Source: a virus. Taken from it: a stretch of DNA of 26,072 nucleotides. Below are positions 1 to 26,072 of the stretch, piece after piece. Position numbers and translations under genes: made by a program. The stretch is from UHGV virus genome UHGV-0157394; one strand, written 5' to 3'. Each line of letters opens with the position of its first letter. The stretch's first letter is position 1. The notes beneath the pieces were generated by a model that worked only from the letters and a program-made list of their open reading frames with translations, did no database searches and was not told the origin of the DNA.

Positions 1-113
1 CTGGTATCACTTAAAGGTATTAAAAACAACTTTTTGTCTTTTTACCTTCCCGTTTCGCTCAAGTTAGTATAAAAAAGCTGAACGTGAAACATTAAAAACC
101 AGTAATATCAATG

Positions 114-122
114 TGTTACAAT
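114..122 (+). promoter_or_regulatory. Candidate extended -10 promoter (TGtTACAAT), no convincing -35
   Basis: TGTTACAAT motif at 114-122 in AT-rich non-coding DNA; a strong terminator lies about 100 nt downstream on the same strand. Confidence 0.3.
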
Positions 123-224
123 ATCTTTAGTCTCAAAAATAGACTACATGATGCTACAAAACACAACATATCCAGTCACTATGAATCAACTACTTAGATA
201 GTATTAGTGACCTGAGACAGAGCA

Positions 225-264
225 TTAGCGCAAGGTGATTTTTGTCTTCTTGCGCTAATTTTTT
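225..264 (+). terminator. Intrinsic terminator: 10-bp perfect stem (TTAGCGCAAG / CTTGCGCTAA) followed by TTTTTT
   Basis: Perfect inverted repeat 225-234 and 249-258 followed by T6 at 259-264; the reverse strand lacks a U-tract, so it is plus-strand specific. Confidence 0.6.
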
Positions 265-403
265 GTTATCAAACATGTCGCACTCCAGAGAAGCACAAAG
301 CCTTGCAATCCAGTGCAAAGATTTGTGTGCCTCAGTTTTGTCTAAGTGTTCTACTGAAAACATAGTAAAATCGGCAACGGCTGGAAATCATTCAATACTC
401 GCA

Positions 404-670
404 CTATCGAAAGTTCGCCAGCCAGCCGCAGCGCGTTCTTGCATACGACGTGTCTGCGGTTTTATATAATCCCAGCCGGTCCAGTTTCCAGACAATCAAC
501 TCATCTCCACTTTTCATCACCGTAATTAATTCCTTTAACACAGGGCGATTAGCTGTTCTGCCACTGGCATATTCTTCATAAATTCGCTCACAGCCAGCTG
601 ACTCAAGTGCAAGACGTTGCAACTCTGTATCCTGATGATTTGTTGATACACGAACATACCCGTAAATCAT
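404..670 (-). pseudogene. pin: Truncated serine recombinase (Pin/Gin/Hin-family DNA invertase), N-terminal about 67 aa only
   Basis: MIYGYVRVSTNHQDTELQ...LIVWKLDRLG matches the invertase N-terminus with the catalytic-serine motif YVRVST; similarity stops near nt 470 and the ORF ends after 88 aa, versus about 185-190 aa for intact invertases. Confidence 0.8.
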
Positions 671-729
671 GAGTGCTTCTCCTGTTGTAAAAACAGGAGA
701 AGAGGCGAAATATCACCTGATTCAGAAAA

Positions 730-755
730 ATATTTGAAAGGTTGGTTTGGGAGAA
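730..755 (-). promoter_or_regulatory. Candidate hix/gix/pix-like crossover site (inner site next to pin)
   Basis: Left half TTCTCCCAAACC is near-identical to the half-site at 1830-1841; the two sites are in inverted orientation. Confidence 0.4.
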
Positions 756-1100
756 GCGGCAAAACGGGATGTGGGAACAGGTTCAGGTCAGATACCGGAT
801 ATGGGAGCATTCGCTTCTGGTTCGGGATGGTTCAGGCTACCAGGTGGATATATTGTTCAGTTTGGCACTTTTTCAGGAAACACGACTCGCTTTATCAGTG
901 GACACTTCCCTATACCATTCCCTAATCAGCCAATGGTTTCAGTCAGTGTTATGTCTGATGCCGTTCAGTCAGACCCGTCGAATCCTGCCCCGCAGGTTTT
1001 GTCTGTAAATTTTGAACATATCAGTAATTCAGCGTGGCGTGTGGCAACCAGTAATATCTCACAGCAATACATATTCAGTTATATTTCGAAAGGACGGTAG
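738..1100 (+). CDS. Silent alternative tail-fibre C-terminal (receptor-binding) segment with no start codon of its own
   Basis: Open frame begins right after a TGA at 735-737 with no ATG; contains WFRLPGG...QFG, paralogous to YFELPGG...QWG in the expressed fibre; followed in the same orientation by tfa. Confidence 0.6.
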   Translation, partial: KVGLGEAAKRDVGTGSGQIPDMGAFASGSGWFRLPGGYIVQFGTFSGNTTRFISGHFPIPFPNQPMVSVSVMSDAVQSDPSNPAPQVLSVNFEHISNSAWRVATSNISQQYIFSYISKGR

Positions 1101-1557: not shown

Positions 1558-2132
1558 TACATCCCGAGTGCAAAATACGTATAGCTGTCAATATTGTTTG
1601 CCGTGCCGTTTCCATTCCATCCATAAAGGCTAAAGCCAGTTAAGGTATAATTAGCTGACGTCACATACCGACCGTCAGCTGTGATTTTATGCGGAAGAAC
1701 GATAAATGGGGTGACATTAAACGGTTTTTTAAAGCTTACCGTAGCATTGGTCGCCTGAACCGAGCCGTGCCCCCATTGCAGCAGCAATCCTCCCGGTAAT
1801 TCAAAGTACCCATCAGCCTCCAGTAACCGTTCTCCAAATCCAAGGTTTTCGAGAGCCGTTTTCACCGTGCCATCCGATTTGATATCGCCAAACGGATTCT
1901 TGCGGCTTAACAGCAGCGCACGAAGCGCGGTAAGCAGCTGGTCATGCCGCCCCTTCTCCAGGCTGGCACCGGATGCCTCCACCACGCTGCAGAGTTCTTC
2001 CTGCAACATATCAAAGTAGTCATCATCCAGATCGGTGGCAGGTGTGCCGGTCTGGGGGTTACCACGGGTAAAACCGTTCTTACCCGCGCCGAACTTATCC
2101 TTCTGCGCGGTTTTCGTGTCTATACGATGCAT
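1557..2132 (-). CDS. Tail fibre protein (constant N-terminal part plus currently expressed C-terminal tip)
   Basis: 191-aa ORF at the end of the baseplate gene series; its C-terminal half is paralogous to the plus-strand fragment at 738-1100. Confidence 0.8.
1830..1855 (+). promoter_or_regulatory. Candidate hix/gix/pix-like crossover site inside the tail-fibre gene
   Basis: TTCTCCAAATCCAAGGTTTTCGAGAG matches about 20 of 26 positions of hixL as I recall it (TTCTTGAAAACCAAGGTTTTTGATAA); lies at the constant/variable junction of the fibre. Confidence 0.5.
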
Positions 2133-2135
2133 GGA

Positions 2136-2720
2136 TTACTCCGGATATTTAAAAATTACGTAGGTATGCGACGGGCAGAGTTTGTTAAGCACACACTCGA
2201 CAACGGTGTCGCCCCAGATACGCAGCGCGGAATCACAGGGATCGCCACATGTCATCCAGGTGGTGTTTGTGGCGGCTGGCATGTTGACCTGCCAGTAATA
2301 CCGCCATTCCGGCACATTCACCGCGTCAGTACAGGCCGATGAGCAGGTGAACGTGCTTATGTCGTATCGCGTGATGGTAGCGTCTGGTCTGCCCAGGGCA
2401 GCAAGCTGTGCAAGATAAAAATTCTCGTTGATGCCGCCCGCCAGGTTAACCTTCGCATCCAGCCGTTGCTGACGCTGGCGAAGGGTCTGCGTCCCTGCCG
2501 GAATACATTCATCCGGCAGACCGCACAGACGCTCCCAGCGGTTTATCAGTTCAGTGGTGGTGCGCGGATCCAGCTCCCGCATCAGGGCATCCGCACGCTG
2601 ATGAACGCGGGTTAATGACGGTGCCACACCGGCAATCGCCGGATCGCTGGCTGACCACGCCGGACCGGGGGGCAACAGTGCCGACAACAGACGGATGTAA
2701 TCATCGTTTGTCACGTCCAT
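2136..2720 (-). CDS. Mu gp48-like tail/baseplate protein (DUF2313-type; e14 YmfQ-like)
   Basis: 194-aa ORF between baseplate J and tail fibre; family resemblance from memory. Confidence 0.75.
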
Positions 2721-3769
2721 GAAATCGTCCCCAGAACCGCCAGTTCATTTTTTGCAATGGAGATATTATCTGCCGGTGCAAGCAACTGATGGCTGTATTC
2801 CCCGTTCGCACCGGAAATCGCCTCACTGATACGCGATACCTTCAGTTCTCCCTGCGGATAACCATCACGCAGCAGGAACGAACGCAACTCCGCGGTGATG
2901 GCAGCCCGTATTTCCGGTGTATCCGGCGTCACACGGATATGAAAATCCACCGTATGCGCCACCGGCCTGAACACATACAAATCAGAGCCTGCCACCGGGG
3001 CCAGCGGCCCGATATGTTGTCTTGCCGCCGTTTCCGTTGATTCTTCCGGAATGGGATTAATCAGGTCACTACTGGCAATCATCACACCGACAGTCCCCGT
3101 TCCCATCCAGTGACGGTATGCCCATGCGCGGGTAATGCCGGGCACTTCTTTAGCCCAGACGACATAGTCCCCGTCAGCCCCGCCCTGCGGCGTCCAGTAA
3201 TACCGCTCAATGACGCGGGCGCGCCACGTTTCCAGATCTTCAGTATCAAATCCACCTGTCAGGGTATCTGCCACACCGGAAGACGGCAGACCATTCACCG
3301 GCGTGACCAGGATTAATGCCGTACCGTCGTCAGCGTTACCGACCGCGCCTGCAGTTGAACAGGCGATCGGCAGGCGCAGGACACCACCGGAGCTGGTTGC
3401 ATCGGCAGTTGCCGTGTACTGAACCAGGTCATCGCGCTGAATAACACTTCCGGCGGTCACCTTCAGGCCATCGCTGACACCTTCCCAGCGCATATACCCG
3501 CTGGCAGCCGTGGCCCCCTTGCGCGGACACCGTTTCATCGCAGCATGTCGCGCCAGCCAGAACTCATCGCACAGGTCAGGCAGCATGTTCATTGCCAGAT
3601 AATCGATGTACCCGTAAACCGTATGCAGCGCCGCCGCATACACCTTTGCCCGCACGTCTTCATCCATGCGCCGGAGCGTGTCGCTGACGTCCAGCCTGGC
3701 GAATAAATCGTTACGGAGCATACTGATATTTTCTGCCAGCGTCGGGCGCTGAAATTCACTGTCCGCCAT
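2711..3769 (-). CDS. Baseplate J-like protein (Mu gp47-like)
   Basis: 352-aa ORF in conserved Mu-like baseplate order. Confidence 0.85.
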
Positions 3770-4184
3770 GCGTTATCGCACTCCACAGATCATCAAAAGA
3801 AATCATTACCGGTCCGTCACGACGCCAGAGAGTGATACTGTTACCCAGTTCATTAATCCCGGTGCGGCGGATATCCAGATCAATACGGGACACCACGCCG
3901 TCATCAATCATCCATTGCAGGCATTCGCGGATATACCCCCTTACCGTCTGCACCAGCTGATTGGTCAGTTTGCTGCGCTGAAGCAGCCACAGTCGGGAGC
4001 CGTAACGGTCATTCTGTACCGCAGGCCAGGTATCCCCCCACCATCCCATCGGGACTTCGGCGTTGTCATCAGGCTCCGCCCGCCGCCAGGTAAACAGGGA
4101 AATCACCACGGCGCGGGTCAGCGGATCCAGTTGTGCGCTGGCGCAGGTGCGTTTACCGTTCACCGTCAGCCACAGTTCCATCAT
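3756..4184 (-). CDS. Mu gp46-like baseplate protein
   Basis: 142-aa ORF between baseplate V and J homologues. Confidence 0.75.
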   Translation of the reverse strand: MMELWLTVNGKRTCASAQLDPLTRAVVISLFTWRRAEPDDNAEVPMGWWGDTWPAVQNDRYGSRLWLLQRSKLTNQLVQTVRGYIRECLQWMIDDGVVSRIDLDIRRTGINELGNSITLWRRDGPVMISFDDLWSAITHGGQ

Positions 4185-4729
4185 GCCTCCATCACTTTAT
4201 CAGGTTTGTCGGTGTTACTGCCCTGACCGTTCTCTCTGTGACGATGCCCGTTATAGGCAAGCCGCATCGCTGACATGGTGGTGCCGGTGGAGTCGCACAG
4301 GTCTTTCACCTGTCCGGTCACTTCCAGGTCCATTTCAAAACGTGCCTTAGGCGCATTGCGAAACGTGATCGTTTTACCTGCACCGTCCACCACGATCCCC
4401 TCCCGGGCCAGCGTCACGGACTGCCCCTGATCGTCATAGACAGCCACCTCACCCGTCTGCAGCCCTTTCAGGCGGTAGCGCCGGTCCGACACCGTAACAA
4501 CCACCGCATGAGAACGGTCGCCATCCGGAAACAACACCACCGCTTCCGCACCGCTGTTTGCCCTTGCGGTAAAACCGTAGGGTTCAAGATGTTCAACCCC
4601 GGCTTTGGGTTCACCGGCAATCAGGGACACATCCACGGTCTGACATTTCGTGGCGGCACTGATGCTTTTCACCACGGCCCGCCCAATCAGGCCGAGGAGT
4701 TGTCGCTGCATGGCTTCAATCGTCCTCAT
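4181..4729 (-). CDS. Baseplate assembly protein V / spike (Mu gp45-like)
   Basis: 182-aa ORF, translationally coupled to flanking baseplate genes. Confidence 0.8.
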   Translation of the reverse strand: MRTIEAMQRQLLGLIGRAVVKSISAATKCQTVDVSLIAGEPKAGVEHLEPYGFTARANSGAEAVVLFPDGDRSHAVVVTVSDRRYRLKGLQTGEVAVYDDQGQSVTLAREGIVVDGAGKTITFRNAPKARFEMDLEVTGQVKDLCDSTGTTMSAMRLAYNGHRHRENGQGSNTDKPDKVMEA

Positions 4730-5808
4730 CAGAACGGGTCCTCCTGTACTCTGGCTTTTTTCTTTTTCCGCGCGCCGGGGGCTTCGGGTTCAGGCAGATA
4801 AGCATCAGGCGGGCCGACACGGATTTCCGTCAGGGTGCCGTTCTGGTCCTGAGTAAACGTGACTTCCGAAACAAGCAGTTCGGTATTGTCGAAACCACAG
4901 ACCGGATCAAAGACAATCACCCGCTGGTTGGGCTGCCACAGCGTACCGTTACCCTGTCGCCAGCCCTGCACCACATAGGTGGTTTCATCCGTCCGCGCCG
5001 CCCGTTGCCGGGCTTCAAAGTCAGCACGGGCAATACAGCCAGCCCCCGTAGCCTGCCCTGTCTGCCTGATATACATCGGACGGTAACGGGCAATAAATGC
5101 GTCCTCTGTGCGGGCCCGCAGCGCGGTGGTGGTGGCCTCACCGAAATCATCGTCGTTTCCGGCACGCTGCCCCGCCACCTGGTAAACAGAAAACCGCTCC
5201 CGGATACTCTTCTCCGTATCGCAGGAAAGGATGTTTTCCCCGAGTACCAGCGCAGTATGTGCCCGCGTTGAGCCAATACCGCCAATCACCAGCCTGCCGT
5301 GCGGGTCGTCGTAAGCCAGTGCCTGCTGCTGACCGAGTATTTTGTTGATTACCTCAATCACCGTTTCACCGTGATCAGGCTGGACATCAGGAATAACACC
5401 CGACGGCGCACCGTTGTTCACCACCTCAATGCCGAAAGGCGCAGCAAGCACCTGCGCAATCTGTACCAGCGATCGTCCGTTAAACTGTGTCGGTTCGGCT
5501 GCACAGTCAATCAGGTCAGCGGTCAGACTGCGTCCGGCAATACCGGTGCTGACCGAACGGGCATCGTAACGAACGGGCGTCGCCTCCACCCAGCCGGTGA
5601 TCACCAGCTCATCACCAATCAGCACCTCCACTTTTGAACCGTTTTTAATGCGCGGCTGAAGCGTGGTAATACCCTCATCTCCCGGCCACTGGCGGGTGAT
5701 CTCCACACTGAAATCCCGCGCCAGCCGTTCAATACCGGCACCGATGCGCACCGATGTCCAGCCATTCCACTCCCGGCCATTTACCCGTAGCGTGACATTG
5801 TCGTTCAT
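4729..5808 (-). CDS. Mu gpP-like tail/baseplate hub protein (gp44 family)
   Basis: 359-aa ORF downstream of the DNA-circulation protein, as in Mu. Confidence 0.85.
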   Translation of the reverse strand: MNDNVTLRVNGREWNGWTSVRIGAGIERLARDFSVEITRQWPGDEGITTLQPRIKNGSKVEVLIGDELVITGWVEATPVRYDARSVSTGIAGRSLTADLIDCAAEPTQFNGRSLVQIAQVLAAPFGIEVVNNGAPSGVIPDVQPDHGETVIEVINKILGQQQALAYDDPHGRLVIGGIGSTRAHTALVLGENILSCDTEKSIRERFSVYQVAGQRAGNDDDFGEATTTALRARTEDAFIARYRPMYIRQTGQATGAGCIARADFEARQRAARTDETTYVVQGWRQGNGTLWQPNQRVIVFDPVCGFDNTELLVSEVTFTQDQNGTLTEIRVGPPDAYLPEPEAPGARKKKKARVQEDPF

Positions 5809-7133
5809 TGCACTGGCACCTTCAGAGGGATCACCGGCACAAAGCCGGGATGCGTAATGGCATTACGCCGGATAATGTCCGCGTCACGCGCCGCGTTATC
5901 AAACCAGGTCGCCGCCAGCACCAGCGCGGGTAAAACCTCATCCGGTGTGCGCTGAATGATCCGTGCAGACTGTTCAAGGCGCGTGTTGATATCCGCATTC
6001 AGATCTGCTTTCACCCGGCGCAGCGCCAGAAACAGCGCATCACTGGTTGTACGGGACAACTCCTTATCAATTGCCGTATTCAGTGTGTCGCGAATGTCAG
6101 TCAGTTCTTCCCACGTCGGCAGGTCAACCGTGTTTTTCACCGCCGGTGCATTGTTCAGTGCCGGATGCGTGACGGAAGGCCAGCCAGTGCTCTGCGCAGG
6201 TGTTGTTGCCTGCCCCACTGCGGAATTCTGCATCACCGCGGAAGTTGTTGGCGCAGGCAATCGGGTGACGGCATACGCCGCTTCGCTGATTGCGGTCGTA
6301 CGAAGGGTGCTGGCAACCACGTTACGCTGCTGCGTCGCCGTGGCGGTGGTTTTACTGTCCGTTTTCCAGACGCCGCGCGGTTGCAGATCGCTGCCGAGGC
6401 TGACACCGGAAAGCGTTTTGATCATGGTGACCAGGTCGCTGGCGTTACCATAAAGGCGTTTCCCGGTACGCCACATTTTCTGCACCTGCTCAACGAAATT
6501 TTTGCCTGACGATGGCGGCGGCAGAAGTACCGAGATATCCCCCTGCAACAGCCTGGCGGCATCCGATACGGCAGAATCCACCACTTTCATCGCATCAGAA
6601 ACATACCCCAGCATTATGCTGGCATTACCGATAACGTCGTTCTGCACGAAATCCGCCACACCATCGATACTGAAACCGCTGAAGCTGTCACTGATGCAGT
6701 CATCCAGTGCAGAACAGGATGACATCAGCGTCTGCGCCGTCGCCGCACCTGATGTGGGGTAAGAGAGTTCTCCTGCTTCGACAAACTTCAGGTCAAAGCG
6801 GACAATACGCCCTTCATTTTTCGATGTGCTGACCCGAACTTCCCCGTCAACACAGACTTTCAGCTCACCATATGTCGGGTGGACCAGCGTGCCGGGACCG
6901 GGTTTATTCAGCGCGTCAATCAGGCGATCGCGCTGGTCAAAGCAGTCATCTCCCACCACATAAGCTGTGATGGACGGGCGGAAAGTGACTTTTCCCAGAT
7001 CTTCGGTATAGGGCTTGTCGCGGTTCGGGTATTCATGTGTTTCCACACGGCGACCGGTTCCCGCACTTTCTTCTTCAACCTTAAACGGCACACCTCGAAA
7101 TGACGCATCCTGAAGCCTGTCTTTCCACGTCAT
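5805..7133 (-). CDS. Phage DNA circulation protein (Mu gpN/gp43-like)
   Basis: About 442 aa; likely true start is the ATG at 7133 preceded by GGAG (the track begins at an upstream GTG at 7139); follows tape measure as in Mu. Confidence 0.85.
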   Translation of the reverse strand: MTWKDRLQDASFRGVPFKVEEESAGTGRRVETHEYPNRDKPYTEDLGKVTFRPSITAYVVGDDCFDQRDRLIDALNKPGPGTLVHPTYGELKVCVDGEVRVSTSKNEGRIVRFDLKFVEAGELSYPTSGAATAQTLMSSCSALDDCISDSFSGFSIDGVADFVQNDVIGNASIMLGYVSDAMKVVDSAVSDAARLLQGDISVLLPPPSSGKNFVEQVQKMWRTGKRLYGNASDLVTMIKTLSGVSLGSDLQPRGVWKTDSKTTATATQQRNVVASTLRTTAISEAAYAVTRLPAPTTSAVMQNSAVGQATTPAQSTGWPSVTHPALNNAPAVKNTVDLPTWEELTDIRDTLNTAIDKELSRTTSDALFLALRRVKADLNADINTRLEQSARIIQRTPDEVLPALVLAATWFDNAARDADIIRRNAITHPGFVPVIPLKVPVQ

Positions 7134-7143
7134 ATACACTCCG

Positions 7144-7174
7144 AAAATAAAAAAGCCACCTATTAGAAGGTGGC
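7144..7174 (-). terminator. Intrinsic terminator closing the low-GC moron cassette
   Basis: On the minus strand GCCACC-ttctaata-GGTGGC followed by TTTTTTATTTT. Confidence 0.7.
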
Positions 7175-7194
7175 CTTGTAATGAATTTTATTAA

Positions 7195-7725: not shown

Positions 7726-7760
7726 TTTTCGCCTATTAACATTTTTCTAAATGTGCATTA

Positions 7761-7788
7761 ATTCTATCACTCTATTTATGACTTACAA
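7761..7788 (-). promoter_or_regulatory. Candidate sigma70 promoter of the moron gene (TTGTAA, 16 bp spacer, TGaTAGAAT extended -10)
   Basis: Motifs read on the minus strand about 35 nt upstream of the ATG at 7725. Confidence 0.4.
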
Positions 7789-7816
7789 CCAGCAATACAT
7801 GTGAGGGGAATCCTGG

Positions 7817-17378: not shown

Positions 17379-19112
17379 TTAAAGCGAGCGGATCCCGTAG
17401 GACTCAATGTGATCAGACAGCGTGTCTTCTTTCTCGTACAGCATGGCTCTGCCAACCGCCATAATCAGCGCAACTGCACCGTCAATTTTGTTTTCCGCCT
17501 GCTCTTTGACGGGTTTCACCACATCATCGTTACCCGGCATGTTTTTGCCGACCACGTTGCCGATACACCAGGTCATGATGGGATTGCCGTCATGATGAAA
17601 ACGTCCCGATTCAATCGCTGCTTCCAGCTCTTTCATCGGATCGGACATATTGGTGAAGTTCTGGAAGATAGTGACGGGATTCAGGTCTTCATCAGCAAGG
17701 TCATGTGACAGCCCGGTCGCCCCGAAGGGGTCGATGGGTGACTCGCTGACCGGGCTGATTTTGTTCGCCGCTTTGGCCTCTTCGAGGATGTAGCGATAAT
17801 CCACCTCTGCACCATCGGTAACGGTCAGGACGCCCATTTCCACCCATTTCTGAAAGCGTTCGGCTGTCCGGCGATCTTCATTTTTCTCGACGCTGTACAC
17901 CGTGTCATACGGTACCCAGAAACGCGGGGCCACACTGTAGTAATGCGTTTTACCGTCAATCTCGCGGGTATAAAGTCGCGCCATGCTGTTCATATCCAGT
18001 TTACGCGCCAGGTCAAAGGCCAGAATGCACGGCTGCCCCTCGAATTGCTCAAGAGTCAGTGATTTATCCTCGCAGCTCTGCCAGCTCACCAGGTTGAAAT
18101 ACGCCGAACGCGCCGACACCCAGATATTGAGGTGTTTTGTTTTAAAGACGTTTGCCAGACGGGCGTTATTTTTCGCACGCTGTTGCTGACTTAACAAAAA
18201 CTCACGGTAAACCGACACCCCGATATTCGGGTTGGCTTTTTCCAGCACCTGTGGGTTGGTCCAGTCGTCACCTTCGTCAACGGTATAGATGATCCCGAAC
18301 AGTTCATCGTTGGGTACCGAACCGTTGAGCATCTCGATAACTTCCCGCCGTTTGTCGTAGCACGGCCCCTCAATGTTGTACCCGGCAGTAGTAATGGCCC
18401 ACATCAGTGGCTGACGTCGCGCCCCCATCCCGGTAAGCATCGTGGTGTAAAGCGCATCGGTGGCGTGCTCGTGATATTCATCCACCACCGCACAGTGGGG
18501 TGATGATCCATCACCGGGGTTACCGATCAGCGGTTCAAACCGCGCGCCATCCTCCGGACGGTTCATGTTTGAGGCGTTAACCTCAATCCCGAACGCTTCC
18601 GTCAGCATGGGTGTGCGTTTACACATCAGTCGCGCCGGGCGAAAGACTTCCCACGCCTGTTTCTCTGTCGTGGCACCGGAATACACTTCCGCGCCAAACT
18701 CGTTATCACAGGCAAAACAATACAGGGCGACACCGGCAGAGATTGCCGATTTGCCGTTCTTACGGGGGATTTCGGTATACACCTCACGGAAGCGGCGCAG
18801 CCGGGAGCCTTTATTGACCCAGCCAAACGCGCAGCAGATCACAAAGAGCTGCCACGGCTCCAGCGTGATGGGCATCCTCTTAAATGCCCACTCACCCTTG
18901 GTGTGCGGCAACAGCTGAATAAATTTGGCGGCCCGTTCAGCCAGGTCCTTGTCGAAGCGGTAACGAAACGACTTACTTTTTTCCGCCATCAGGTCATCAA
19001 GATGGCGCTGGCAGGCCTGAATCACAAACTGGCAGGCCACAATCTTTCCCCGCACGACATCACGGGCATACTGATTGGCAGCATTTACGTTGGGGTAAGA
19101 TTTCCGGCTCAT
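17379..19112 (-). CDS. Terminase large subunit
   Basis: 577 aa; size and position typical of HK97-like terminase. Confidence 0.95.
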
Positions 19113-19612
19113 GATTCGATGATTTTCAGAAACGGGTTAGTGGCTTTCTTCTGCCCCGCCAGGCCTATCAGACGCTGGCGGCTGCTGGGGTCGAGTCCGA
19201 GCATTGCCCCCGTGCTGCTCATCTCGGACTCCTGTTCTTTCTTGGCGGTCAGCTCCGGGTTTTTGACCCTGCCGCCCATTGCACCGGTGATGGTGTTGCC
19301 CTGGCTGGCAATATTTTTCACGGCACGTCGCCAGAACTCATAGGCCACGCACCACCGCTCAAGTACCGCCAGGTCAGTCACGCACAGCAGGCCCTGACCG
19401 CAGAGTTCTTTGGTTGTCAGTTGCCACATGATCGTGGCGAGAGGGAGATCTTCTTCTGCGAACCACTCCGGTGGCTCAACACCTTTGATGGGCGTAAAAA
19501 CAGGTTCATCTTTGTTCAGGGCTCGCTTGCCGGGGTTTCCGGCCAGCGCCTTGCGCGCCGTTGGCTTGGGGCGACGCCCGGAACGCCCCGCCGTTCCAGC
19601 CATATGCGGCAC
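19109..19612 (-). CDS. Terminase small subunit (P27/HK97 gp1 family)
   Basis: 167 aa; N-terminal ...[26 protein letters not shown] motif. Confidence 0.9.
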
Positions 19613-19649
19613 TCCTGGTTAAATTTCATTTTTCGCGGGTATAAAAAAA

Positions 19650-19705
19650 CGATGGGGCGGGCAGTCCGGAAGACGTCAGGTCACAGGGATTTGACCCGCC
19701 CCTCC
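19650..19705. other. Candidate cos / packaging-recognition region (nested inverted repeats)
   Basis: GGGGCGGG (19654-19661) and CCCGCCCC (19695-19702) flank GGTCA...TGACC, between HNH endonuclease and terminase small subunit. Confidence 0.3.
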
Positions 19706-19728
19706 CCTCAGACAGTTGAGAATTATTA

Positions 19729-20079
19729 TCACTTTAACCGTTCACGGGCCGTCTTCGCCTTATGGCAGGGCCAGCACAGACTCTGCAGATTACTGTCGGC
19801 ATCGGTGCCGCCATGCGCTTTAGGGATGATGTGGTCAACGGTTTTAGCTTCACGCACCACACCGGCACGCAGACATAACTGACACAGGCCTTTGTCACGT
19901 TTCAGGACACGTGCGCGGATAACATCCCACTTCGAACCATAACCGCGCTGATGCCTTGATTGTCCTGATTTGTAGGATTTCCAGCCTTCGCCTTTGTGCG
20001 ACTCACAGTAACCTGATGGGTCTGTTGTCGTGGAACGGCAGCCGCGAACACGGCAAGCTTTTGGTGTTCGAGGTGGCAT
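19729..20079 (-). CDS. HNH endonuclease (terminase-associated, HK97 gp74-like)
   Basis: 116 aa with Cys pairs and DHIIPKAHGG...N...CHK HNH motif; immediately upstream of terminase genes. Confidence 0.9.
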   Translation of the reverse strand: MPPRTPKACRVRGCRSTTTDPSGYCESHKGEGWKSYKSGQSRHQRGYGSKWDVIRARVLKRDKGLCQLCLRAGVVREAKTVDHIIPKAHGGTDADSNLQSLCWPCHKAKTARERLK

Positions 20080-20091
20080 TTTAACTCCAAT

Positions 20092-20120
20092 AAAAAACCG
20101 CCCGGAGGCGGTTATAGTTT
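20092..20120 (-). terminator. Intrinsic terminator after the 92-aa moron gene
   Basis: ACCGCC-tccg-GGCGGT stem followed by TTTTTTATT on the minus strand; overlaps the stop codon of the 20112..20390 gene. Confidence 0.6.
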
Positions 20121-20390
20121 TTTGTATGGCTTTGGCTTTGGGTTGCCATGCCTGATGTGCGACTTAATCACATCGTCGCTTGGCCTGCGTCCGTTAACTC
20201 CGATCAGATAAATCTCGTCATCCACCTGGAATTCAAAGATCTGATACTCCACATCGGGGATGACCGCCACGCCACCAACCATTTCCCGAGCCTTCACTTG
20301 ACAGTCCGGAACCTTGATCGTCAACTCATGCCTTTCAACGTGGCAAACCGAACCAAAACGCCCAGCGCCGAACACAACTACGTCGAACAT
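20112..20390 (-). CDS. Moron gene: small protein of unknown function (92 aa from the ATG start)
   Basis: Strong RBS GGAGG 5 nt upstream of ATG at 20390 (the track starts at an upstream GTG); own extended -10 promoter and own terminator; AT-rich upstream region. Confidence 0.65.
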   Translation of the reverse strand: MFDVVVFGAGRFGSVCHVERHELTIKVPDCQVKAREMVGGVAVIPDVEYQIFEFQVDDEIYLIGVNGRRPSDDVIKSHIRHGNPKPKPYKKL

Positions 20391-20419
20391 ATGCACCTCC
20401 TTTCCATTGATGCCTGATA

Positions 20420-20430
20420 ATTATATCACA
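20420..20430 (-). promoter_or_regulatory. Candidate extended -10 promoter (TGtgaTATAAT) for the 92-aa gene
   Basis: Consensus TATAAT with upstream TG in the AT-rich spacer, about 30 nt upstream of the ATG. Confidence 0.4.
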
Positions 20431-20520
20431 ATGAAAATAAAGGATTTTATGTCAACCACAATAAAAATTGAGATGTTCATCACCATTATCAAGCCCACCA
20501 GCAGATGAGCTTTGTAATGG

Positions 20521-20778
20521 CTACTTCGCTTTTGCTTCCGCTCGCTTACGCCGGCGCTCTTCTTTCCTCTCGGCTTTTGCCATGTCCATGAATGCCTGCA
20601 TGATCGAGTTCCGCATCATGTAGCTAACAAAGTGATGATTGACACAGCCGTTGAGGCGCAGCTGCTCGCCAAACTCATCCACCGAGGCCAATGCTTCCAT
20701 CATGCCCTTCTCGCCTTTCATGAACTCTGAGAAGTCGCGCCCCGCTCTGGAGGCGCATTCTATTATTCGGGTGCTCAT
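20521..20778 (-). CDS. Small protein of unknown function (85 aa from internal ATG; highly basic Lys/Arg-rich C-terminal tail)
   Basis: ORF beginning 2 nt after the KilA-N gene stop (probable translational coupling); the track's upstream start at 20838 would overlap the KilA-N gene. Confidence 0.5.
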   Translation of the reverse strand: MSTRIIECASRAGRDFSEFMKGEKGMMEALASVDEFGEQLRLNGCVNHHFVSYMMRNSIMQAFMDMAKAERKEERRRKRAEAKAK

Positions 20779-20780
20779 GA

Positions 20781-21509
20781 TCAGGCCGCCGCATAGAGCA
20801 ATTTCATCTGCCCTTTCACCTGGAATGCCGACATGCAACGCGCTTCGAAATCACGATAATCAGAGCACCCATTGGCAATGCTGGTAACGGCAATGATCTG
20901 TCGCTCAACCAATGTCAGCGCGTCAGGTTTAAGGTGCTGATGGATTTTGTCTCCCGTAGCCAGCCGTCTTTTAACCTCTGCATATACTTCTGGTGGTAAT
21001 ACCGGGCCATATACCCACTTGGCACTGATCATCCCAAATAGTGCGGGGCGACGACCTGGTCGATGACGGGGCAGCCCTGACATTTTGAACATCGCAGAAT
21101 AAAACGGATCGCTAAACCTCTTTTCCCATGGCTGAGATTTATCCAGAAGGAAAATAGCCTTTATTCTTTCATCGTCGATATGATGAACGGAACCCTGAAT
21201 GATTGCGTCAATTTGCTCATCACACCAGATCTCAAAATCTACAGAAAGCCATCGAGCAAATCTGACCGCCAGTTTTGGGTGAAGCCATGTTCCGCCACCA
21301 CGATCTTTGCGAGCGCGGCTGGTTTTTACATATGTGATATTCCCATATCTACTCTTTAACGCCTCGATGTAACGGACAGTCTCAGGAAGCCTAAGCCACT
21401 GAGCCGGCTCCTTGTTGAACTTGTCAGCTGCCGCAGTCGCGTCAAACCAGCCATCGTCAGAAAAACGCATGGGATGGCCTTCGAAATCAATCGGGATGAT
21501 ATTGGACAT
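20781..21509 (-). CDS. KilA-N domain protein with an unassigned C-terminal domain
   Basis: IPIDFEGHPMRF...GGTWLHPKLAVRFARWLSVDFEIWC matches the KilA-N hallmark; likely start is the ATG at 21509 with AAAGG RBS rather than the track's 21584. Confidence 0.75.
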   Translation of the reverse strand: MSNIIPIDFEGHPMRFSDDGWFDATAAADKFNKEPAQWLRLPETVRYIEALKSRYGNITYVKTSRARKDRGGGTWLHPKLAVRFARWLSVDFEIWCDEQIDAIIQGSVHHIDDERIKAIFLLDKSQPWEKRFSDPFYSAMFKMSGLPRHRPGRRPALFGMISAKWVYGPVLPPEVYAEVKRRLATGDKIHQHLKPDALTLVERQIIAVTSIANGCSDYRDFEARCMSAFQVKGQMKLLYAAA

Positions 21510-21659
21510 CGTATTTACCTTTTTGGTGATATGAGCCAGTTCTCGCAGACATGGACAGCCCAAGAGCGGCACGATGTAAGCCACCGTCCTGTCTCTGTCT
21601 CATATCCCGAAAAGCTCTTGGTTGATATGCGCACGAGAATGCGCGTTTACTGCGGACAT

Positions 21660-21683
21660 AAAAAAGCCCCGCATCGCGAGGCT
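21660..21683 (-). terminator. Intrinsic terminator downstream of the lysis cassette
   Basis: AGCCUCGC-gau-GCGGGGCU stem (one G-U pair) followed by UUUUUUAUG on the minus strand. Confidence 0.55.
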
Positions 21684-21714
21684 CATTAAATGGACTTTGT
21701 GATTTGCAAAAAAA

Positions 21715-22152
21715 TTATTTCAGGCACTGAGTCCTGATGTACTCCTGCAGGTAGTTAACCTGCGCGGTTATCCTGTCGATTCCACTTCGGAGACGGTAAT
21801 AATTGAGTTCAGCATCTGCTGTAAGTCCTGGGCTTTCTCCATCGCCCATGCCGCTGGCTCCGGTCGTTGACTTTGCACAGGTGGCGGCGACTTGCAGGCG
21901 CTTACGACCAGCAGAAACATCAGCACGGAGGCTTTCGATAGTCGCGTTAGCATCAGCAAGCTCCTTTGTGTATCTGGCATCGAGTTCTGCTACGTCACGT
22001 TGACGCTTCTGCATGTCAGCGATTGTGGATGTGGCTTTATCGCGCTGTTCTTTGTAGGCGATGGCGTTATCACGGTAATGATTAACCGCCCATGACAGGC
22101 AGACGATGATGCAGATAACCAGAGCGGAGATAATCGCGGTTACTCTGCTCAT
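21715..22152 (-). CDS. Rz: Spanin inner-membrane subunit Rz
   Basis: N-terminal [31 protein letters not shown] near-identical to lambda Rz; remainder diverged. Confidence 0.9.
21768..21953 (-). CDS. Rz1: Spanin outer-membrane lipoprotein Rz1, embedded in Rz in the +1 frame
   Basis: Embedded ORF with lipobox-like LVVSAC followed by a Pro-rich segment; exact start among several Met codons is uncertain. Confidence 0.6.
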
Positions 22153-22625
22153 ACCTCAATCTCTCTGACCGTTCCACCTGCTTCTTTGAATTTTGCAATC
22201 AGGCTGTCTGCCTTATGCTCGAACTGACCATAACCAGCACCCGGCAGTGAAGCCCAGATATTGCTGCAACGGTCGATTGCCTGACGGATATCGCCGCGAT
22301 CAATCATCGGTAAAGCGCCACGCTCCTTAATCTGCTGCAATGCCACAGCGTCCTGGCTTTTGGGAGAGAAGTCTTTCAGGCCAAGCTGCTTGCGGTAGGC
22401 ATCCCACCAACGGGAAAGAAGCTGGTAGCGTCCTGCGGCTGTTGATTTGAGTTTGGGGTTTAGCGTGACAAGTTTGCGAGGGTGATCGGAGTAATCAGTG
22501 AATAGCTCTCCTCCTACAATGACGTCATAACCATGATTTCTGGTTTTCTGACGTCCGTTATCAGTTCCCTCTGACCATGCCAGCATATCGAGGAACGCCT
22601 TACGTTGATTATTGATTTCCACCAT
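22149..22625 (-). CDS. R: Endolysin R (lytic transglycosylase)
   Basis: 158 aa, essentially identical to lambda R as recalled. Confidence 0.95.
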
Positions 22626-22932
22626 CTTCTACTCCGGCTTTTTTAGCAGCGAAGCGTTTGATAAGCGAACCAATCGAGTCAGTACCGATGTAGCCGATGA
22701 ACACGCTCGTTATATAAGCGAGATTGCTACTTAGTCCGGCGAGGTCGAGAAGATCACGAATGAACCAGGCGATAATGGCGCACATCGTTGCGTCGATTAC
22801 TGTTTTTGTAAACGCACCGCCATTATATCTGCCGCGAAGGTACGCCATTGCAAACGCAAGGATTGCCCCGATGCCTTGTTCCTTTGCCGCGAGAATGGCG
22901 GCTAACAGGTCATTTTTTTCTGGCATCTTCAT
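22609..22932 (-). CDS. S: Holin S (class I, dual-start S107/S105)
   Basis: [39 protein letters not shown]... near-identical to lambda S, including Met1-Lys2-Met3. Confidence 0.95.
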
Positions 22933-23230
22933 GTCTTACCCCCAATAAGGGGATTTGCTCTATTTAATTAGGAATAAGGTCGGTTACTGATAGAACAAAT
23001 CCAGGCTACTGTGTTTAGTAATCAGATTTGTTCGTGACCGATATGCACGGGCAAAACGGCATGAGGTTGTTAGCGCAACCTCTTGCCACCCGCTTTCACG
23101 AAGCCAGCCATTGAGCTGGTTTTCTTTTATGCAAAGCACACCGCACCGTAGCCACAGCGGATAAGGTGATTATTTTTGTCTGTCTGGTATTTGGTTTGAT
23201 GTGCTTTCAGAAAGGCCGTGCTTAAAACGC

Positions 23231-23262
23231 AAAAAGCCCCGAGCTATTAACTCAGGGCTTTA
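23231..23262 (-). terminator. Intrinsic terminator about 30-60 nt downstream of the pR' start (tR'-like)
   Basis: AGCCCUGAG-uuaauag-CUCGGGGCU stem then UUUUUGCG on the minus strand. Confidence 0.6.
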
Positions 23263-23294
23263 TTTAACGAGTGCATTTATCCATCGTTGAGTCA

Positions 23295-23323
23295 AATTTA
23301 CCCAACTTTATTCAAAAAGTCAA
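23295..23323 (-). promoter_or_regulatory. Late promoter pR' with overlapping qut region (TTGACT, 17 bp, TAAATT)
   Basis: TTGACTTTTTGAATAAAGTTGGGTAAATTTGACTCAACGATGG on the minus strand matches lambda pR'/qut as recalled, directly downstream of Q. Confidence 0.75.
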
Positions 23324-23365
23324 TATTATGCCGTTAATATGTTGCCATCCGTGGCAATCATGCTG

Positions 23366-23989
23366 CTAACGTGTGACCGCGTTCAAAATGTTGTCTGCGA
23401 TTGACTCTTCTTTGTGGCATTGCACCACCAGAGCGTCATACAGCGGCTTAACAGTGCGTGACCAGGTGGGTTGGGTAAGGTTTGGTACTAGCATCGTCAC
23501 AGCGCGATATGCAGCGCTTGCTGGCATTCTTGAATAACCGACGCCTTTGCATCTTCCGCATTCTTTCTCAACAACTCTCCCCCACTGCTCTGTTTTTGCT
23601 ATATCAACCGCACGGCCTGTACCGTGGCAATCTCTGCATCTTGCGCCCGGCGTCGCGGCACTACGGCAATAATCCGCATAAGCGAATGTTGCGAGCACTT
23701 GCAGTACCTTTGCCTTAGTATTTCCTTCGAGCTTTGCCACACCACGGTATTTCCCCGATACCTTGTGTGCAAATTGCATCAGATAGTTGATAGCCTTTTG
23801 TTTGTCGTTCTGGCTGAGTTCGTGCTTACCGCAGAATGCAGCCATACCGAATCCGGCTTGTGATTGCGCCATCCCCATAGCAGCCATCACATCAGTACCG
23901 GAAAGGGAGTCAGAAGCCGTGGCCCGTGGTGAGTCGCTCATCATCGGGCTTTTTGGCGAATGAAATTTAGCTACGCTTTCGAGTCTCAT
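23366..23989 (-). CDS. Q: Late gene antiterminator Q (lambda type)
   Basis: 207 aa, essentially identical to lambda Q over its whole length, including the zinc-binding Cys cluster. Confidence 0.97.
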   Translation of the reverse strand: MRLESVAKFHSPKSPMMSDSPRATASDSLSGTDVMAAMGMAQSQAGFGMAAFCGKHELSQNDKQKAINYLMQFAHKVSGKYRGVAKLEGNTKAKVLQVLATFAYADYCRSAATPGARCRDCHGTGRAVDIAKTEQWGRVVEKECGRCKGVGYSRMPASAAYRAVTMLVPNLTQPTWSRTVKPLYDALVVQCHKEESIADNILNAVTR

Positions 23990-24174
23990 CGTCTTCCCCT
24001 CTTGCCCTGTTTGACCATCAGGACGCCGTTAACTATTACGTGACGCTCACCTTTGCTGTCTCGGTTGTACTTGAGCACTGTTCCTCTTGCGCAGGAAAGC
24101 ATCCTTGCCACTTCGGTCTGATTGCCTCGTGTCTGGATAAGAAGCTCTGGTATCGTTTGAATTGTGGCGTTCAT
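23986..24174 (-). CDS. ninH: NinH
   Basis: 62 aa with NQTEVAR...C.RGTV.KY...G..H.IVN.VLMV pattern matching lambda NinH. Confidence 0.85.
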   Translation of the reverse strand: MNATIQTIPELLIQTRGNQTEVARMLSCARGTVLKYNRDSKGERHVIVNGVLMVKQGKRGRR

Positions 24175-24533
24175 GCGTTCTCCAGTTCGGTGATTTTTAT
24201 TCCAAGCCTTCCGCCTGGTACTTTCACACCACGAATTACGCGAATGTCATCGAATTGCTCGTCGTCTTCCGCAAATCCGGCGTGGATAAGGGAGTCGAGT
24301 AAACCCTTCAGGATGTTATCGAGGTCGCGGCGGCGGGAGTCTGGAACGTCTGCGATGACTTTGATGCGGAGTCGTGATTTGGTGAAAATGTCTAACTTAA
24401 GTTGGCGGATGATTTGCTGAACGTCTTTTCGGTATTTCTGGCCTTTATCGCTGATGTAGTATTGGCTTCCCCGTCTTCGCCAGTAGGTGTTCACCGACGG
24501 CGGGTATGGAAGCACAAACTGATATTCGTTCAT
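24171..24533 (-). CDS. rusA: Holliday junction resolvase RusA
   Basis: 120 aa; MNEYQFVLPYPPSVN...RRRDLDN...KITELENA typical of RusA. Confidence 0.9.
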   Translation of the reverse strand: MNEYQFVLPYPPSVNTYWRRRGSQYYISDKGQKYRKDVQQIIRQLKLDIFTKSRLRIKVIADVPDSRRRDLDNILKGLLDSLIHAGFAEDDEQFDDIRVIRGVKVPGGRLGIKITELENA

Positions 24534-24820
24534 GACTTAATCTTCCCCTCCTTCAGCAGTATCGCCTGCGTCCTGATCACGCCTTCGAGGTGGTAAAGTC
24601 TGGCGTCTTTGTTGTCGAGGTTATGGGTGCGTCGGTCGATCTCCGCGTGGCAGTCACTACAAGCCCATGCGCCGATCAGGTCGTCAGGCTTCATTCCCGT
24701 TCCGCAAATTCCAGCCATCCGGTAATGTGCCAGAACTGTAGTTTCAGGATTGCCATTGCATACGCCGTAAATACGTACCTGGCATTCTCTGTTGCGCGCT
24801 TCTTTGCGTAGGTTAGCCAT
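24530..24820 (-). CDS. ybcO: YbcO-like protein (DUF1364, putative nuclease)
   Basis: 96 aa; RECQVRI.GVCNGNPETTVLAH...CSDCH...DRRTH matches DLP12 YbcO. Confidence 0.8.
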   Translation of the reverse strand: MANLRKEARNRECQVRIYGVCNGNPETTVLAHYRMAGICGTGMKPDDLIGAWACSDCHAEIDRRTHNLDNKDARLYHLEGVIRTQAILLKEGKIKS

Positions 24821-25542
24821 TAAGCAGCCTCCCCTGTTACTTTCAGCATTCCGTTATCGAGCAGCTTTCTGGTCAGCCACTGTTGACCACGCCCGGTGAT
24901 TTTTGTGGTGAACGATATCTGTATTCCGTGATTTGTGTTGACCGCTGTTTCTTTCACTGTGAAATAGCCGCGATCCATATATTCCTGCATTGGCACATTG
25001 CGCCGGGAACCTGAAGCAATAAGGATTTTGTGATCACGCATCCACGCAAACAGTTTGTTTGGACCAATACCGACAACCTTTGCAAAGTTTCCAATCAAAA
25101 TTCCGCTGGCCTCGCCAACGCGATCGGCAAACTCAACTTTAGGTGCGGCAATTGCGAGCTGGTTTTCCAGTTGCATTTTCTGCTCAGCAAGATCAGCAGC
25201 AAGGCGCAACGCTTCTGGTAGCGTTTTGGGGATATTAACCGCAGTTTCTTCAAGCTCTCGCCAACGGTCAACAAGGCGAGCCGTGAATTCCGGCGACAAC
25301 TGGGCAACGACAATAATGCTGTCGCGCTTACCTTGTTCGCCTTCGAAGACGTAAGCCTCGACACTACGGCGCAGTCCTAAGTTATTGATTTTTTCGAAAA
25401 CCTGCAATGCAGGAAGTTGAATAACTCCAGATTTAGCCAGGCGCTCTATTGATATTTTTACGTTATCTGGACGACTTCCCACCAACTCAGCGATTTCAAT
25501 GCTTGTCATTTTGATGGCATTGTCATTTATTAACTCATTCAT
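24820..25542 (-). CDS. Antirepressor-like regulatory protein (Rha-type N-terminal domain plus KilA-C/ANT C-terminal domain)
   Basis: 240-aa ORF in the nin region; N-terminus MTSIEIAELVG...DNV Rha-like, C-terminus KilAC-like. Confidence 0.75.
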   Translation of the reverse strand: MNELINDNAIKMTSIEIAELVGSRPDNVKISIERLAKSGVIQLPALQVFEKINNLGLRRSVEAYVFEGEQGKRDSIIVVAQLSPEFTARLVDRWRELEETAVNIPKTLPEALRLAADLAEQKMQLENQLAIAAPKVEFADRVGEASGILIGNFAKVVGIGPNKLFAWMRDHKILIASGSRRNVPMQEYMDRGYFTVKETAVNTNHGIQISFTTKITGRGQQWLTRKLLDNGMLKVTGEAA

Positions 25543-25711
25543 CGTCTTCTTCCTCGTACATTGAGCTATTCGGATCGCTCATCAGTTCTGCGCAGCAGTG
25601 CTCACACACGTGAACTTCCAGCACATGCAGCTTCTGACCGCAGTTAGCGCACGTTAAAGCTCGCTCGACGCTTTCTTTCTGGTATTGAAGGGATTGGGAT
25701 GGGCTAAGCAT
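25535..25711 (-). CDS. ninF: NinF
   Basis: Not in the ORF track (58 aa); hand-translated as MLSPSQSLQYQKESVERALTCANCGQKLHVLEVHVCEHCCAELMSDPNSSMYEEEDDE, near-identical to lambda NinF. Confidence 0.8.
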   Translation of the reverse strand: MLSPSQSLQYQKESVERALTCANCGQKLHVLEVHVCEHCCAELMSDPNSSMYEEEDDE

Positions 25712-26063
25712 TATTGGCGTCCTGCATCATGAGAAAGACAATCATGGCGGCGCGGAGGGAATTTTCATGTATAGCTCGCTTAGATTTACAGTCGGCCACA
25801 CCACGTGCACCCCACTCGTCTTCATCGAGATTGATAATGCTAATCCTGTACTTCTCAATAATCGGCCATGAGGCGCTAGGATCATTGCAGTAGTCAGGTA
25901 AAGGGTTTAATGGCTCAAAAGTTGTATCAGCGTTTCCGTAATACCATTTGTTGGTATTATTCCCTGACGTTTCCGGCTTACATGCCCAAAGGCCCTTAAA
26001 AATTATGTCTCCTACCATTCTGTTAATTTCAAAATCACTTAACTGTGAATAATCCATTGTCAT
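25704..26063 (-). CDS. Hypothetical nin-region protein (119 aa)
   Basis: ORF with GAGG RBS, 8-nt overlap with ninF start (coupled); somewhat lower GC than neighbours; no family recognised. Confidence 0.55.
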   Translation of the reverse strand: MTMDYSQLSDFEINRMVGDIIFKGLWACKPETSGNNTNKWYYGNADTTFEPLNPLPDYCNDPSASWPIIEKYRISIINLDEDEWGARGVADCKSKRAIHENSLRAAMIVFLMMQDANNA

Positions 26064-26072
26064 TTCCTCGCA

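Follow-up and report, generated by a model that had tools for sequence, protein, structure and literature searches.

The late-gene half of a mosaic Escherichia coli prophage: an SfII-type virion block in an HK97-like lambdoid backbone

The virus genome UHGV-0157394, a DNA stretch of 26,072 nucleotides (hereafter the window, by which the whole stretch is meant), combines late-control and lysis genes of the lambda kind, a head of the HK97 family and a contractile tail resembling that of phage Mu. Such a composition raises the question of how many parents contributed to the element, and how recently. A sequence-only reading had described the window as a three-way mosaic of these lineages. At the family level the three lineages are indeed recognizable and this deep description appears correct; the recent history, however, is better described by two parents, an HK97-like backbone and one SfII-type block. 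We are highly confident that the window represents the bio-proximal 26 kb of a lambdoid prophage at attB-lambda, with two recent parents and a right-to-left, Q-dependent late operon. For the comparisons, the window was searched by megablast against 50,697 phage records, and its positions 1-25000 were compared with 5,426 complete Escherichia coli genomes. Families were assigned using Pfam, the curated equivalogs of NCBIfam and PHROGs, and protein identities were obtained by tblastn. All the genes named in the earlier reading were recovered on the minus strand, as one long leftward array in the order given there; the genes and signals described below lie on that strand unless a plus strand is indicated.

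Two recent parents and the joints between them

The best match among the phage records is Shigella phage SfII, with 97.8% identity over positions 1830-19728; SfI (97.6%), SfV (97.3%) and SfIV (97.2%) also match. The Escherichia phage vB_EcoM-689R6 matches positions 1830-22604 at 96.7%, and HK97 and mEpX1 match the right-hand 4.5-5 kb at ~97.5%. None of the 50,697 phage records covers at least 80% of the window. Prophages that cover at least 80% of positions 1-25000, at ~97% identity, are carried by 16 of the 5,426 complete E. coli genomes, and the top match is a prophage adjoining ybhB and bioA in strain 2017.17.01CC. We propose that an HK97-like lambdoid phage contributed the att/sib arm, the nin genes, Q, the lysis genes and the KilA-N gene (96-98%), and that a phage of the SfII/SfI/SfIV type contributed the whole virion block from the HNH gene to the fibre gene (97-98%). 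The fusion of an HK97-type head with a Mu-like tail inside this block would then be old and inherited as a unit.

The left end of the window is chromosomal. Positions 1-78 derive from the ybhB side of attB-lambda, with all 78 bases identical to E. coli MG1655 between ybhC and ybhB, and this part begins 28 bp from ybhB. The 15-bp lambda att core GCTTTTTTATACTAA is present at 64-78 as an exact minus-strand match, for which the chance expectation is 0. Positions 64-78 are thus the bio-proximal junction of an element integrated at attB-lambda. Because positions 1-78 are host DNA, the mosaic prophage starts at about position 79; the span of 1-26072 proposed for the mosaic holds only from that point. 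The junction leads into a P arm of the lambda/HK97 type (60-468), which comprises sib (~217-266) and a conserved element of ~100 bp (357-468). Positions 60-266 correspond to HK97 21248-21042 at 97.6% identity and positions 365-468 to HK97 21040-20937 at 93.3%, and lambda matches here at 88%. The ~100-bp element was found in 199 phage records and in many lambdoid phages follows tfa or dinI; it has no match in Rfam and may act as a linker for recombination where late regions end on the right. Its carriers include HK97 (downstream of tfa), the lambda b region, HK106 and Stx phages, and in strain 19-5 it follows a pin gene of full length.

At the other end, positions 20484-25677 align with HK97 33505-38698 in a single alignment of 5.2 kb, with a nucleotide identity of 96.4%. 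The right part of this HK97-type block carries ninH, rusA, ybcO, roi/KilAC and ninF. Further to the left are the antiterminator gene Q (23366-23989; Pfam Antiterm, E value 1.5e-57), a lambda-like promoter pR' with the hexamers TTGACT and TAAATT (23323-23295), a predicted tR'-like terminator with a 13-bp stem (23261-23233), the holin gene S (22609-22932; NCBIfam holin_lambda, above cut-off), the endolysin gene R (22149-22625) and Rz with the embedded Rz1 (21715-22152; Pfam Phage_lysis). A predicted terminator (21684-21664), a KilA-N/P63C gene (20781-21584) and a small open reading frame (ORF; 20521-20838) complete the block. Beyond its right edge, the sequence from 25678 to the window end is not of the HK97 type, and the nin-region gene found there (25704-26063) is NinX-like (Pfam Phage_P22_NinX, E 1.2e-14), with no match in HK97 or lambda.

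Calling Q, S and R essentially lambda proteins was accurate, as they differ from their lambda counterparts at only 2 of 207, 3 of 107 and 2 of 158 residues, respectively (99%, 97% and 99% identity). S retains the dual start MKM. By contrast, Rz is of the HK97 type, being 97% identical to HK97 Rz versus 59% to lambda Rz, and it encloses the Rz1 lipoprotein ORF in the +1 frame, with the lipobox VVSAC. As Rz is HK97-like while S and R are nearly identical to those of lambda, a mosaic joint relative to lambda lies inside the lysis cassette. A dual-start class I holin, an endolysin and an Rz/Rz1 pair thus make up a lambda-type lysis cassette. Q lies directly upstream of pR'/qut, which is lambda-like up to about +20 and is then followed by the terminator, so that the antiterminator, pR'/qut and the promoter-proximal terminator of a lambdoid Q-dependent late control region are all present.

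Outside these genes the lambdoid part resembles HK97. Lambda (NC_001416) matches in nucleotides only positions 21904-23103 (93%), 23266-23999 (96.6%) and a short piece of ninF, and Rz, roi, ybcO, rusA, ninH and the KilA-N gene all fall in the HK97-like part and are missing from lambda or diverged in it. Lambda therefore shares with the window Q, S, R, the dual start, pR'/qut and the att core, but differs in Rz, in most of the nin region and in the pR' transcript past about +20, and its structural genes are unrelated in sequence to those of the window. HK97 (NC_002167) shares the stretch from ninF to KilA-N, the P arm with sib and the lambda att core, whereas its own HNH gene, terminase, head and siphovirus tail are all replaced in the window.

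Between the two parental blocks lies a joint region (20096-20483), composed of a predicted bidirectional terminator (20096-20113) and orf94 (20112-20396), whose product matches phrog_17438 (function unknown) with an E value of 3.9e-27. Positions 20100-20483 have no nucleotide match to any of the references compared or to the phage collection; when positions 20060-20520 were searched against phages, only the last 40 bases matched, and these are HK97-like. The HK97/SfII joint as a whole (19600-21000) is spanned in five complete E. coli genomes. To its left are the packaging genes, namely an HNH endonuclease gene (19729-20079; Pfam HNH), which is ~89.5% identical to SfII and SfV over 19729-20080, the small terminase gene TerS of the P27 family (19109-19612; TIGR01558 sm_term_P27, 73.7 bits against a cut-off of 45.6) and the large terminase gene TerL (17379-19112), with Pfam ATPase and nuclease domains. 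The cos region is predicted at 19618-19729, in the interval separating HNH from TerS, because the linear records of SfII, SfV and ST64B have their ends there. The packaging module therefore consists of an HNH gene adjoining cos, a P27-type TerS and TerL. HNH genes beside cos and terminase form a recognized conserved arrangement (PMC3592412). HK97 homology ends at HK97 38698, ahead of the HNH gene of HK97 itself, and the right-hand joint appears to leave the HNH gene with its own terminase, which fits the recognized HNH-cos-terminase linkage (PMC3592412).

Head, neck and contractile tail of the virion block

The head genes occupy positions 14096-17367 and encode YmfR, a small membrane protein (17185-17367), the portal (15944-17185), the S78 prohead protease (15316-16002) and the capsid protein (14096-15301). 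Their assignment to the HK97 family, made earlier together with the packaging genes, is borne out by curated models: besides the P27 model passed by TerS, the portal scores 262 bits with TIGR01537 portal_HK97 (cut-off 112), the protease 158 bits with TIGR01543 proheadase_HK97 (cut-off 59) and the capsid 385 bits with TIGR01554 major_cap_HK97 (cut-off 27.5). The portal matches a solved portal of 424 residues (PDB 8CEZ/8FQL, E 3e-52); the phage is unnamed in the PDB table, and we take the structure to be the HK97 portal because its length equals the coordinate length of HK97 gp3. The closest solved relative of the capsid protein is the capsid of the Rhodobacter gene-transfer agent (RcGTA; PDB 6TB9, E 6.5e-76), and its similarity to HK97 gp5 itself is marginal, with an E value of ~0.007 over ~120 residues. 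Overall, the head proteins of the window are only 25-36% identical to those of HK97.

There is no separate scaffold gene; the gap between the protease and capsid genes is only 14 bp. The Pfam capsid domain begins at residue 115, and the major_cap_HK97 model spans residues 6-398. The N-terminal region of ~114 amino acids preceding the Pfam domain contains 41% charged residues and 61% helix formers, like the delta domain of HK97, and these features are consistent with a delta domain in place of a scaffold gene. The neck genes follow at 12632-14046 and comprise orf66 (13846-14046), a gp6-like connector (13520-13843), a head closure protein (13113-13523) and a Neck1/tail completion protein (12632-13138), as assigned by Pfam, NCBIfam and PHROGs.

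Comparison with the Shigella phages revealed where the head genes differ among relatives. SfV (NC_003444) had been cited as a precedent, together with the defective prophage e14, and it does share the overall plan of lambdoid organization, HK97-family head and Mu-like tail. Its TerS, TerL, neck, tail and baseplate proteins are 96-100% identical to those of the window, and its nucleotide matches cover positions 7823-13844 and 17440-19670, but not 13845-17439. Relative to SfV, these 3.6 kb (13845-17439) are a replaced cassette: the portal and capsid of SfV are 25-28% identical, and for the protease and YmfR no match in SfV was obtained by tblastn at 1e-3. Further differences of SfV are a Q of 35% identity, a holin without a match, an R of 89% identity, and the presence of gtrV and its own integrase in place of lambda att. 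The precedent thus extends to the plan and not to the portal, protease, capsid, Q and holin.

The virion block of SfII (NC_021857), SfI and SfIV is collinear with that of the window, with 97-98% nucleotide identity over 1830-7157 and 7823-19728 (98% over the latter for SfII), and includes the same set of portal, protease and capsid genes (PMC3851460). According to the SfIV genome paper, these three proteins are >90% identical among SfI, SfII and SfIV, the head genes show little identity to those of SfV, and all four phages belong to the HK97 family in this respect (PMC3851460). The cassette at 13845-17439, which contains the last 20 codons of TerL, ymfR, the portal, protease and capsid genes and orf66, is common to SfII, SfI, SfIV, ST64B and e14. 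SfII differs from the window in having its own Q and holin, another early region, gtr O-antigen genes and another integration module; its R gene is ~85% identical in nucleotides, it lacks the invertible fibre cassette and the ORF176 insert described below, and its fibre tips are others.

The tail genes were all assigned by Pfam. The tail terminator (12075-12635; Caudo_TAP is among the families of the window) is followed by a DUF2635/Mu gp38 protein (11896-12066), the sheath with three domains (10416-11912), the tube (10060-10416; Tail_tube), the assembly chaperone (9791-10060, with a -1 extension to 9636; Phage_TAC_7) and the tape measure protein (7817-9649). The baseplate part comprises the DNA-circulation protein N (5805-7139; DNA_circ_N), the gp44/P hub (4729-5808; GpP domains), gp45/V (4181-4729; Mu_Gp45), gp46 (3756-4184; GP46), gp47/J (2711-3769; Baseplate_J) and gp48/YmfQ (2136-2720; Mu_Gp48). 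Eight of the tail proteins match Mu (NC_000929) at 27-44% amino acid identity and are collinear with Mu 21498 to 30952, whereas the tube, chaperone and tape measure proteins are recognized by family models only. The hub matches the structure of Mu gp44 (PDB 1WRU) with an E value of 2e-50. The sheath matches a solved tail sheath of 495 residues (PDB 9KHY, E 1.8e-80) that is also present in entry 9KI1 with Mu gp44; given this company, and a length equal to the coordinate length of Mu gene L, we take it to be Mu gpL. The Mu-like tail module recognized earlier is thus upheld, with genes from the sheath to gp48 in Mu order and in Mu-specific Pfam families, and none of the homology searches assigned the tail to a siphovirus family or the head to a lineage other than HK97.

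The likeness to Mu is confined to the tail. Mu shares the order gp38, L, (M, gp41, gp42), N, P, gp45, gp46, gp47, gp48 and fibre, and also has the fibre C-terminus in an invertible segment adjoining a Gin-like gene; however, there is no nucleotide similarity, and the Mu segment is 3 kb, compared to 1.1 kb with one tfa gene in the window, where moreover the invertase is truncated, unlike Gin of Mu. With SfV and SfII, by contrast, the tail/baseplate block at 1830-7157 shares 97.5% nucleotide identity. The chaperone gene contains the slippery heptamer T_TTT_TTC at 9809-9803, just ahead of its stop codon, and an overlapping -1 ORF (9636-9824) runs up to where the tape measure gene starts. This evidence, confined to the DNA itself, makes the heptamer a predicted site of the conserved programmed -1 frameshift of tail chaperone genes.

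By analogy with lambda, Q would modify RNA polymerase at the lambda-like pR'/qut, and transcription so modified would pass the terminators at 23233, 21664, 20096 and 7152. It would first cross the lysis cassette (S, R, Rz/Rz1) and the KilA-N gene, and would then enter the complete virion block, where HNH, TerS and TerL are expected to act in cos cleavage and packaging. The portal, S78 protease and delta-domain capsid would assemble a head in the scaffold-free HK97 manner, and the neck and the Mu-like contractile tail with its baseplate and fibre would complete the virion. Replacement of a downstream module would be tolerated, since antitermination by Q takes place at the promoter and should require no signal within that module.

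The fibre-tip cassette and the ORF176 insert

The tail fibre gene (1557-2132) encodes a constant N-terminal part of ~100 amino acids, to which PHROG tail fibre families match at residues 1-102, and a Gp53-like_C tip termed Sv (Pfam, residues 112-190). The tip belongs to an invertible segment of ~1.1 kb (742-1843) bounded by inverted crossover sites at 742-757 (plus strand) and 1828-1843 (minus strand). Within it, the alternative tip Sv' (747-1100; Gp53-like_C) and the tail fibre assembly gene Tfa' (1103-1528; Pfam) lie on the plus strand, a predicted bidirectional terminator (1531-1555) separates Tfa' from Sv, and Sv (~1557-1830) is in the expressed orientation. The segment therefore holds two Gp53-like_C tips and one Tfa. 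The inversion repeat of the e14 P segment, which was defined experimentally (PMC12529663), was used as a pattern: TTGGTTTGGGAGAAGG matches only positions 742-757 and 1828-1843, in inverted orientation, where 0.16 matches are expected. Homology to SfV, SfII and e14 all breaks at 1830, and flipping the segment in silico yields an in-frame fibre of the constant part and Sv' (Sc-Sv'), followed by Tfa'. Two inverted crossover sites thus flank alternative fibre C-termini.

The adjoining gene proved to be a remnant. Positions 470-670 encode codons 1-67 of an invertase of the Pin/Gin family, recognized by tblastn and by Pfam Resolvase, which is 60% identical to PinE and 57% to Gin over residues 1-67 only; the Resolvase match covers profile positions 1-76 of 145. 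The 201 bp retained from the 5' end of the gene, where switches of this family would be expected to have a Fis-dependent recombinational enhancer, share ~70% identity with the corresponding parts of pinE and gin. The catalytic serine is retained in the stump, but the deletion has removed the remainder of the catalytic domain together with the DNA-binding domain, and tblastn with PinE and Gin did not find the rest of the gene anywhere in the window. The Pin-type fibre switch described earlier therefore stands as far as both crossover sites and the alternative tips are concerned, but lacks the intact serine invertase. Compared to the gene of 187 amino acids in strain 19-5, which has the same cassette, 394 bp are deleted, with the joint at 462-470. 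Recombination with HK97 DNA inside pin was considered for this left joint and rejected, since 19-5 has the same ~100-bp element downstream of its full-length pin; an internal deletion of 394 bp is the simpler reading of the sequence.

The cassette occurs in other settings. Strain EC596 carries an identical stump and joint, labelled 'missing C-terminus' in RefSeq, in an unrelated prophage at another locus and with a different baseplate type, which indicates that stump and cassette travel together; an exact pattern of 50 bases across the pin-deletion joint had no match in a collection of one genome per species. A P2-like prophage of strain H2 has the whole 1.1-kb cassette at 96% identity, inverted relative to the window and next to a gene for a full-length recombinase, and Klebsiella phages share the Sv'-Tfa' part (737-1515, ~780 bp) at 93%. 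Exchange of receptor-binding modules thus reaches across genera and across tail types. With the cassette flipped in silico as query, no SfV-like prophage with exactly this cassette inverted was found, and the inverted form was recovered only from a P2-like prophage. The cassette is best read as a portable invertible unit, of which the present copy is predicted to be unable to flip itself. With its invertase inactivated by the deletion, the fibre would be locked in the Sv orientation unless a resident recombinase of the Pin family acts in trans. Such inversion in trans is plausible by analogy, since each of PinQ, PinR and PinE is able to invert the P segment of e14 (PMC12529663).

The second accessory feature is an insert at 7158-7822, where a promoter-like site (7788-7761), the gene ORF176 (7195-7725) and a predicted terminator (7177-7152) give the classical anatomy of a moron. 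Its G+C content is 33%, versus ~55% in the flanks. The insert is present in record AP027822 and missing from SfV, SfII and 689R6. ORF176 encodes a protein of 176 residues in which a hydrophobic N-terminal helix precedes a soluble part and which is predicted to be membrane-anchored. Its product matches phrog_5485 (function unknown) and has no match in Pfam or PADLOC, and its nucleotide sequence has none in the 50,697 phage records. Homologues were found only in E. coli, Leclercia and Lelliottia, none of them named; a Leclercia prophage has one that is 53% identical, at the corresponding position, with the tape measure gene and gene N as neighbours. The AlphaFold model, with a predicted local distance difference test (pLDDT) score of 70, has no significant match among PDB folds (best E 0.04, template modelling (TM) score at most 0.28) and one weak match in BFVD, to a lipoprotein of a Pseudomonas phage. 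PADLOC gave no credible defence match for the six accessory ORFs searched, the sole match being one of 19 bits to the KilA-N protein.

A function for the host may be considered for either feature. A host anti-phage role has been reported for the e14 P segment (PMC12529663), and the cassette, if flipped in trans, might act as a recombinase-triggered host block on phage adsorption, as reported for the e14 P segment and PinQ, and not as a switch of virion host range; or ORF176 might be a new envelope-acting superinfection-exclusion protein. We regard this pair of proposals, taken jointly, as rather improbable.

Breakpoints and rival histories

Ten homology breakpoints were counted in the window (78/79, 462-470, 1829/1830, 7157/7158, 7822/7823, 13844/13845, 17439/17440, 20080-20100, 20483/20484 and 25677/25678), and module boundaries had been said to coincide with intrinsic terminators. 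This applies to two of the ten, which lie on predicted terminators of the gene strand: 7157/7158 (terminator 7152-7177) and 20080-20100 (20096-20113). The terminator at 1531-1555 is inside the invertible segment, ~275 bp from the breakpoint at 1829/1830, and the other seven breakpoints have no predicted terminator. Those at 23233-23261 and 21664-21684 are predicted regulatory sites within the HK97-like block and not boundaries. A scan of the whole window with Rfam (E at most 0.1) gave no RNA gene and ARAGORN no tRNA or tmRNA, which places no known RNA gene or tRNA integration site at any boundary.

Some points weigh against the preferred reading as a whole. The 384-bp joint at 20100-20483 matches neither parent, and the half of the prophage with int, the repressor and the replication genes lies outside the window. 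Read-through of the internal terminators by Q-modified polymerase is drawn by analogy from lambda, one sequence does not yield the direction or the order in which recombination occurred, and the complete-genome set contained no source genome at an identity of at least 99%.

Among the alternatives, the window might be a defective, e14-like cryptic remnant, with a decaying late region and a fibre cassette kept for the benefit of the host. The truncated invertase and the anti-phage role reported for the e14 P segment (PMC12529663) are in its favour, and so is e14 itself. The TerL, YmfR, portal, J and YmfQ fragments of e14 are 92-98% identical to the window, and it shares the inversion repeat at both segment ends and the layout of fibre, tfa and pin. 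Its nucleotide matches, at 96%, cover 1830-3498 and 16778-18515; it has no equivalent of 3499-16777 (the beeE/jayE junction), and its TerL has lost the start, the fragment beginning at 18515. This pattern makes e14 a demonstrable deletion derivative of the same virion block. In e14, however, pinE is intact, the segment is 1.8 kb long and contains two tfa genes, mcrA is present, and integration is in icd instead of attB-lambda. In the window, on the other hand, all virion ORFs are full length when set against SfII, 689R6 and AP027822, and except for pin, the virion, lysis and Q ORFs all have their full length and share 94-100% identity with those of SfII and vB_EcoM-689R6, both of them isolated phages. 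The frameshift signal, Rz1, the dual start of S and pR' are intact as well. We therefore consider a cryptic remnant unlikely.

A recent mosaic of three parents, with lambda-type control and lysis genes, an HK97-type head and a Mu-type tail each acquired separately, is very unlikely. It accounts for the three lineages seen at the family level, and the head swap relative to SfV at 13845-17439 shows that head genes do move independently. Yet head and tail are found in one SfII block at 97-98% identity, into which only the ORF176 moron has been inserted, and the lambdoid part is closer to HK97 than to lambda outside Q, S and R. The identities to the HK97 head (25-36%) and the Mu tail (27-44%) are so low that these head/tail unions must be ancient. 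Finally, a chimeric assembly merging an HK97-like with an SfII-like prophage can be dismissed with near certainty: several related lambdoid prophages per E. coli genome are common (a median of four matching places) and no phage record covers at least 80% of the window, but 16 independently finished genomes cover at least 80% of positions 1-25000, five span the joint at 19600-21000, and the pin-deletion joint is identical in EC596.

Two recent parents thus remain the preferred history, and what the window shows is the late half of a commonplace mosaic prophage of E. coli, of a known kind that adds nothing new on phage mosaicism. With near-identical relatives in finished genomes, its significance extends little beyond annotation, and the corrections to the earlier annotation refine it without adding biological novelty. 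For curation, the prophage is SfII-like and not SfV-like in the head, HK97-like and not merely lambda-like in the control region, and sited at attB-lambda, with a fibre switch that is predicted to be unable to operate alone. The portable fibre-tip cassette offers a small lead for host-range studies, and the conserved slot of ORF176 one for exclusion studies. Altogether, the window is a textbook case of modular phage evolution, in which a complete SfII-type virion block appears to have been plugged into an HK97-like lambdoid backbone at joints that preserve functional units, keeping the HNH gene with its terminase and placing the whole block under promoter-proximal control by Q.

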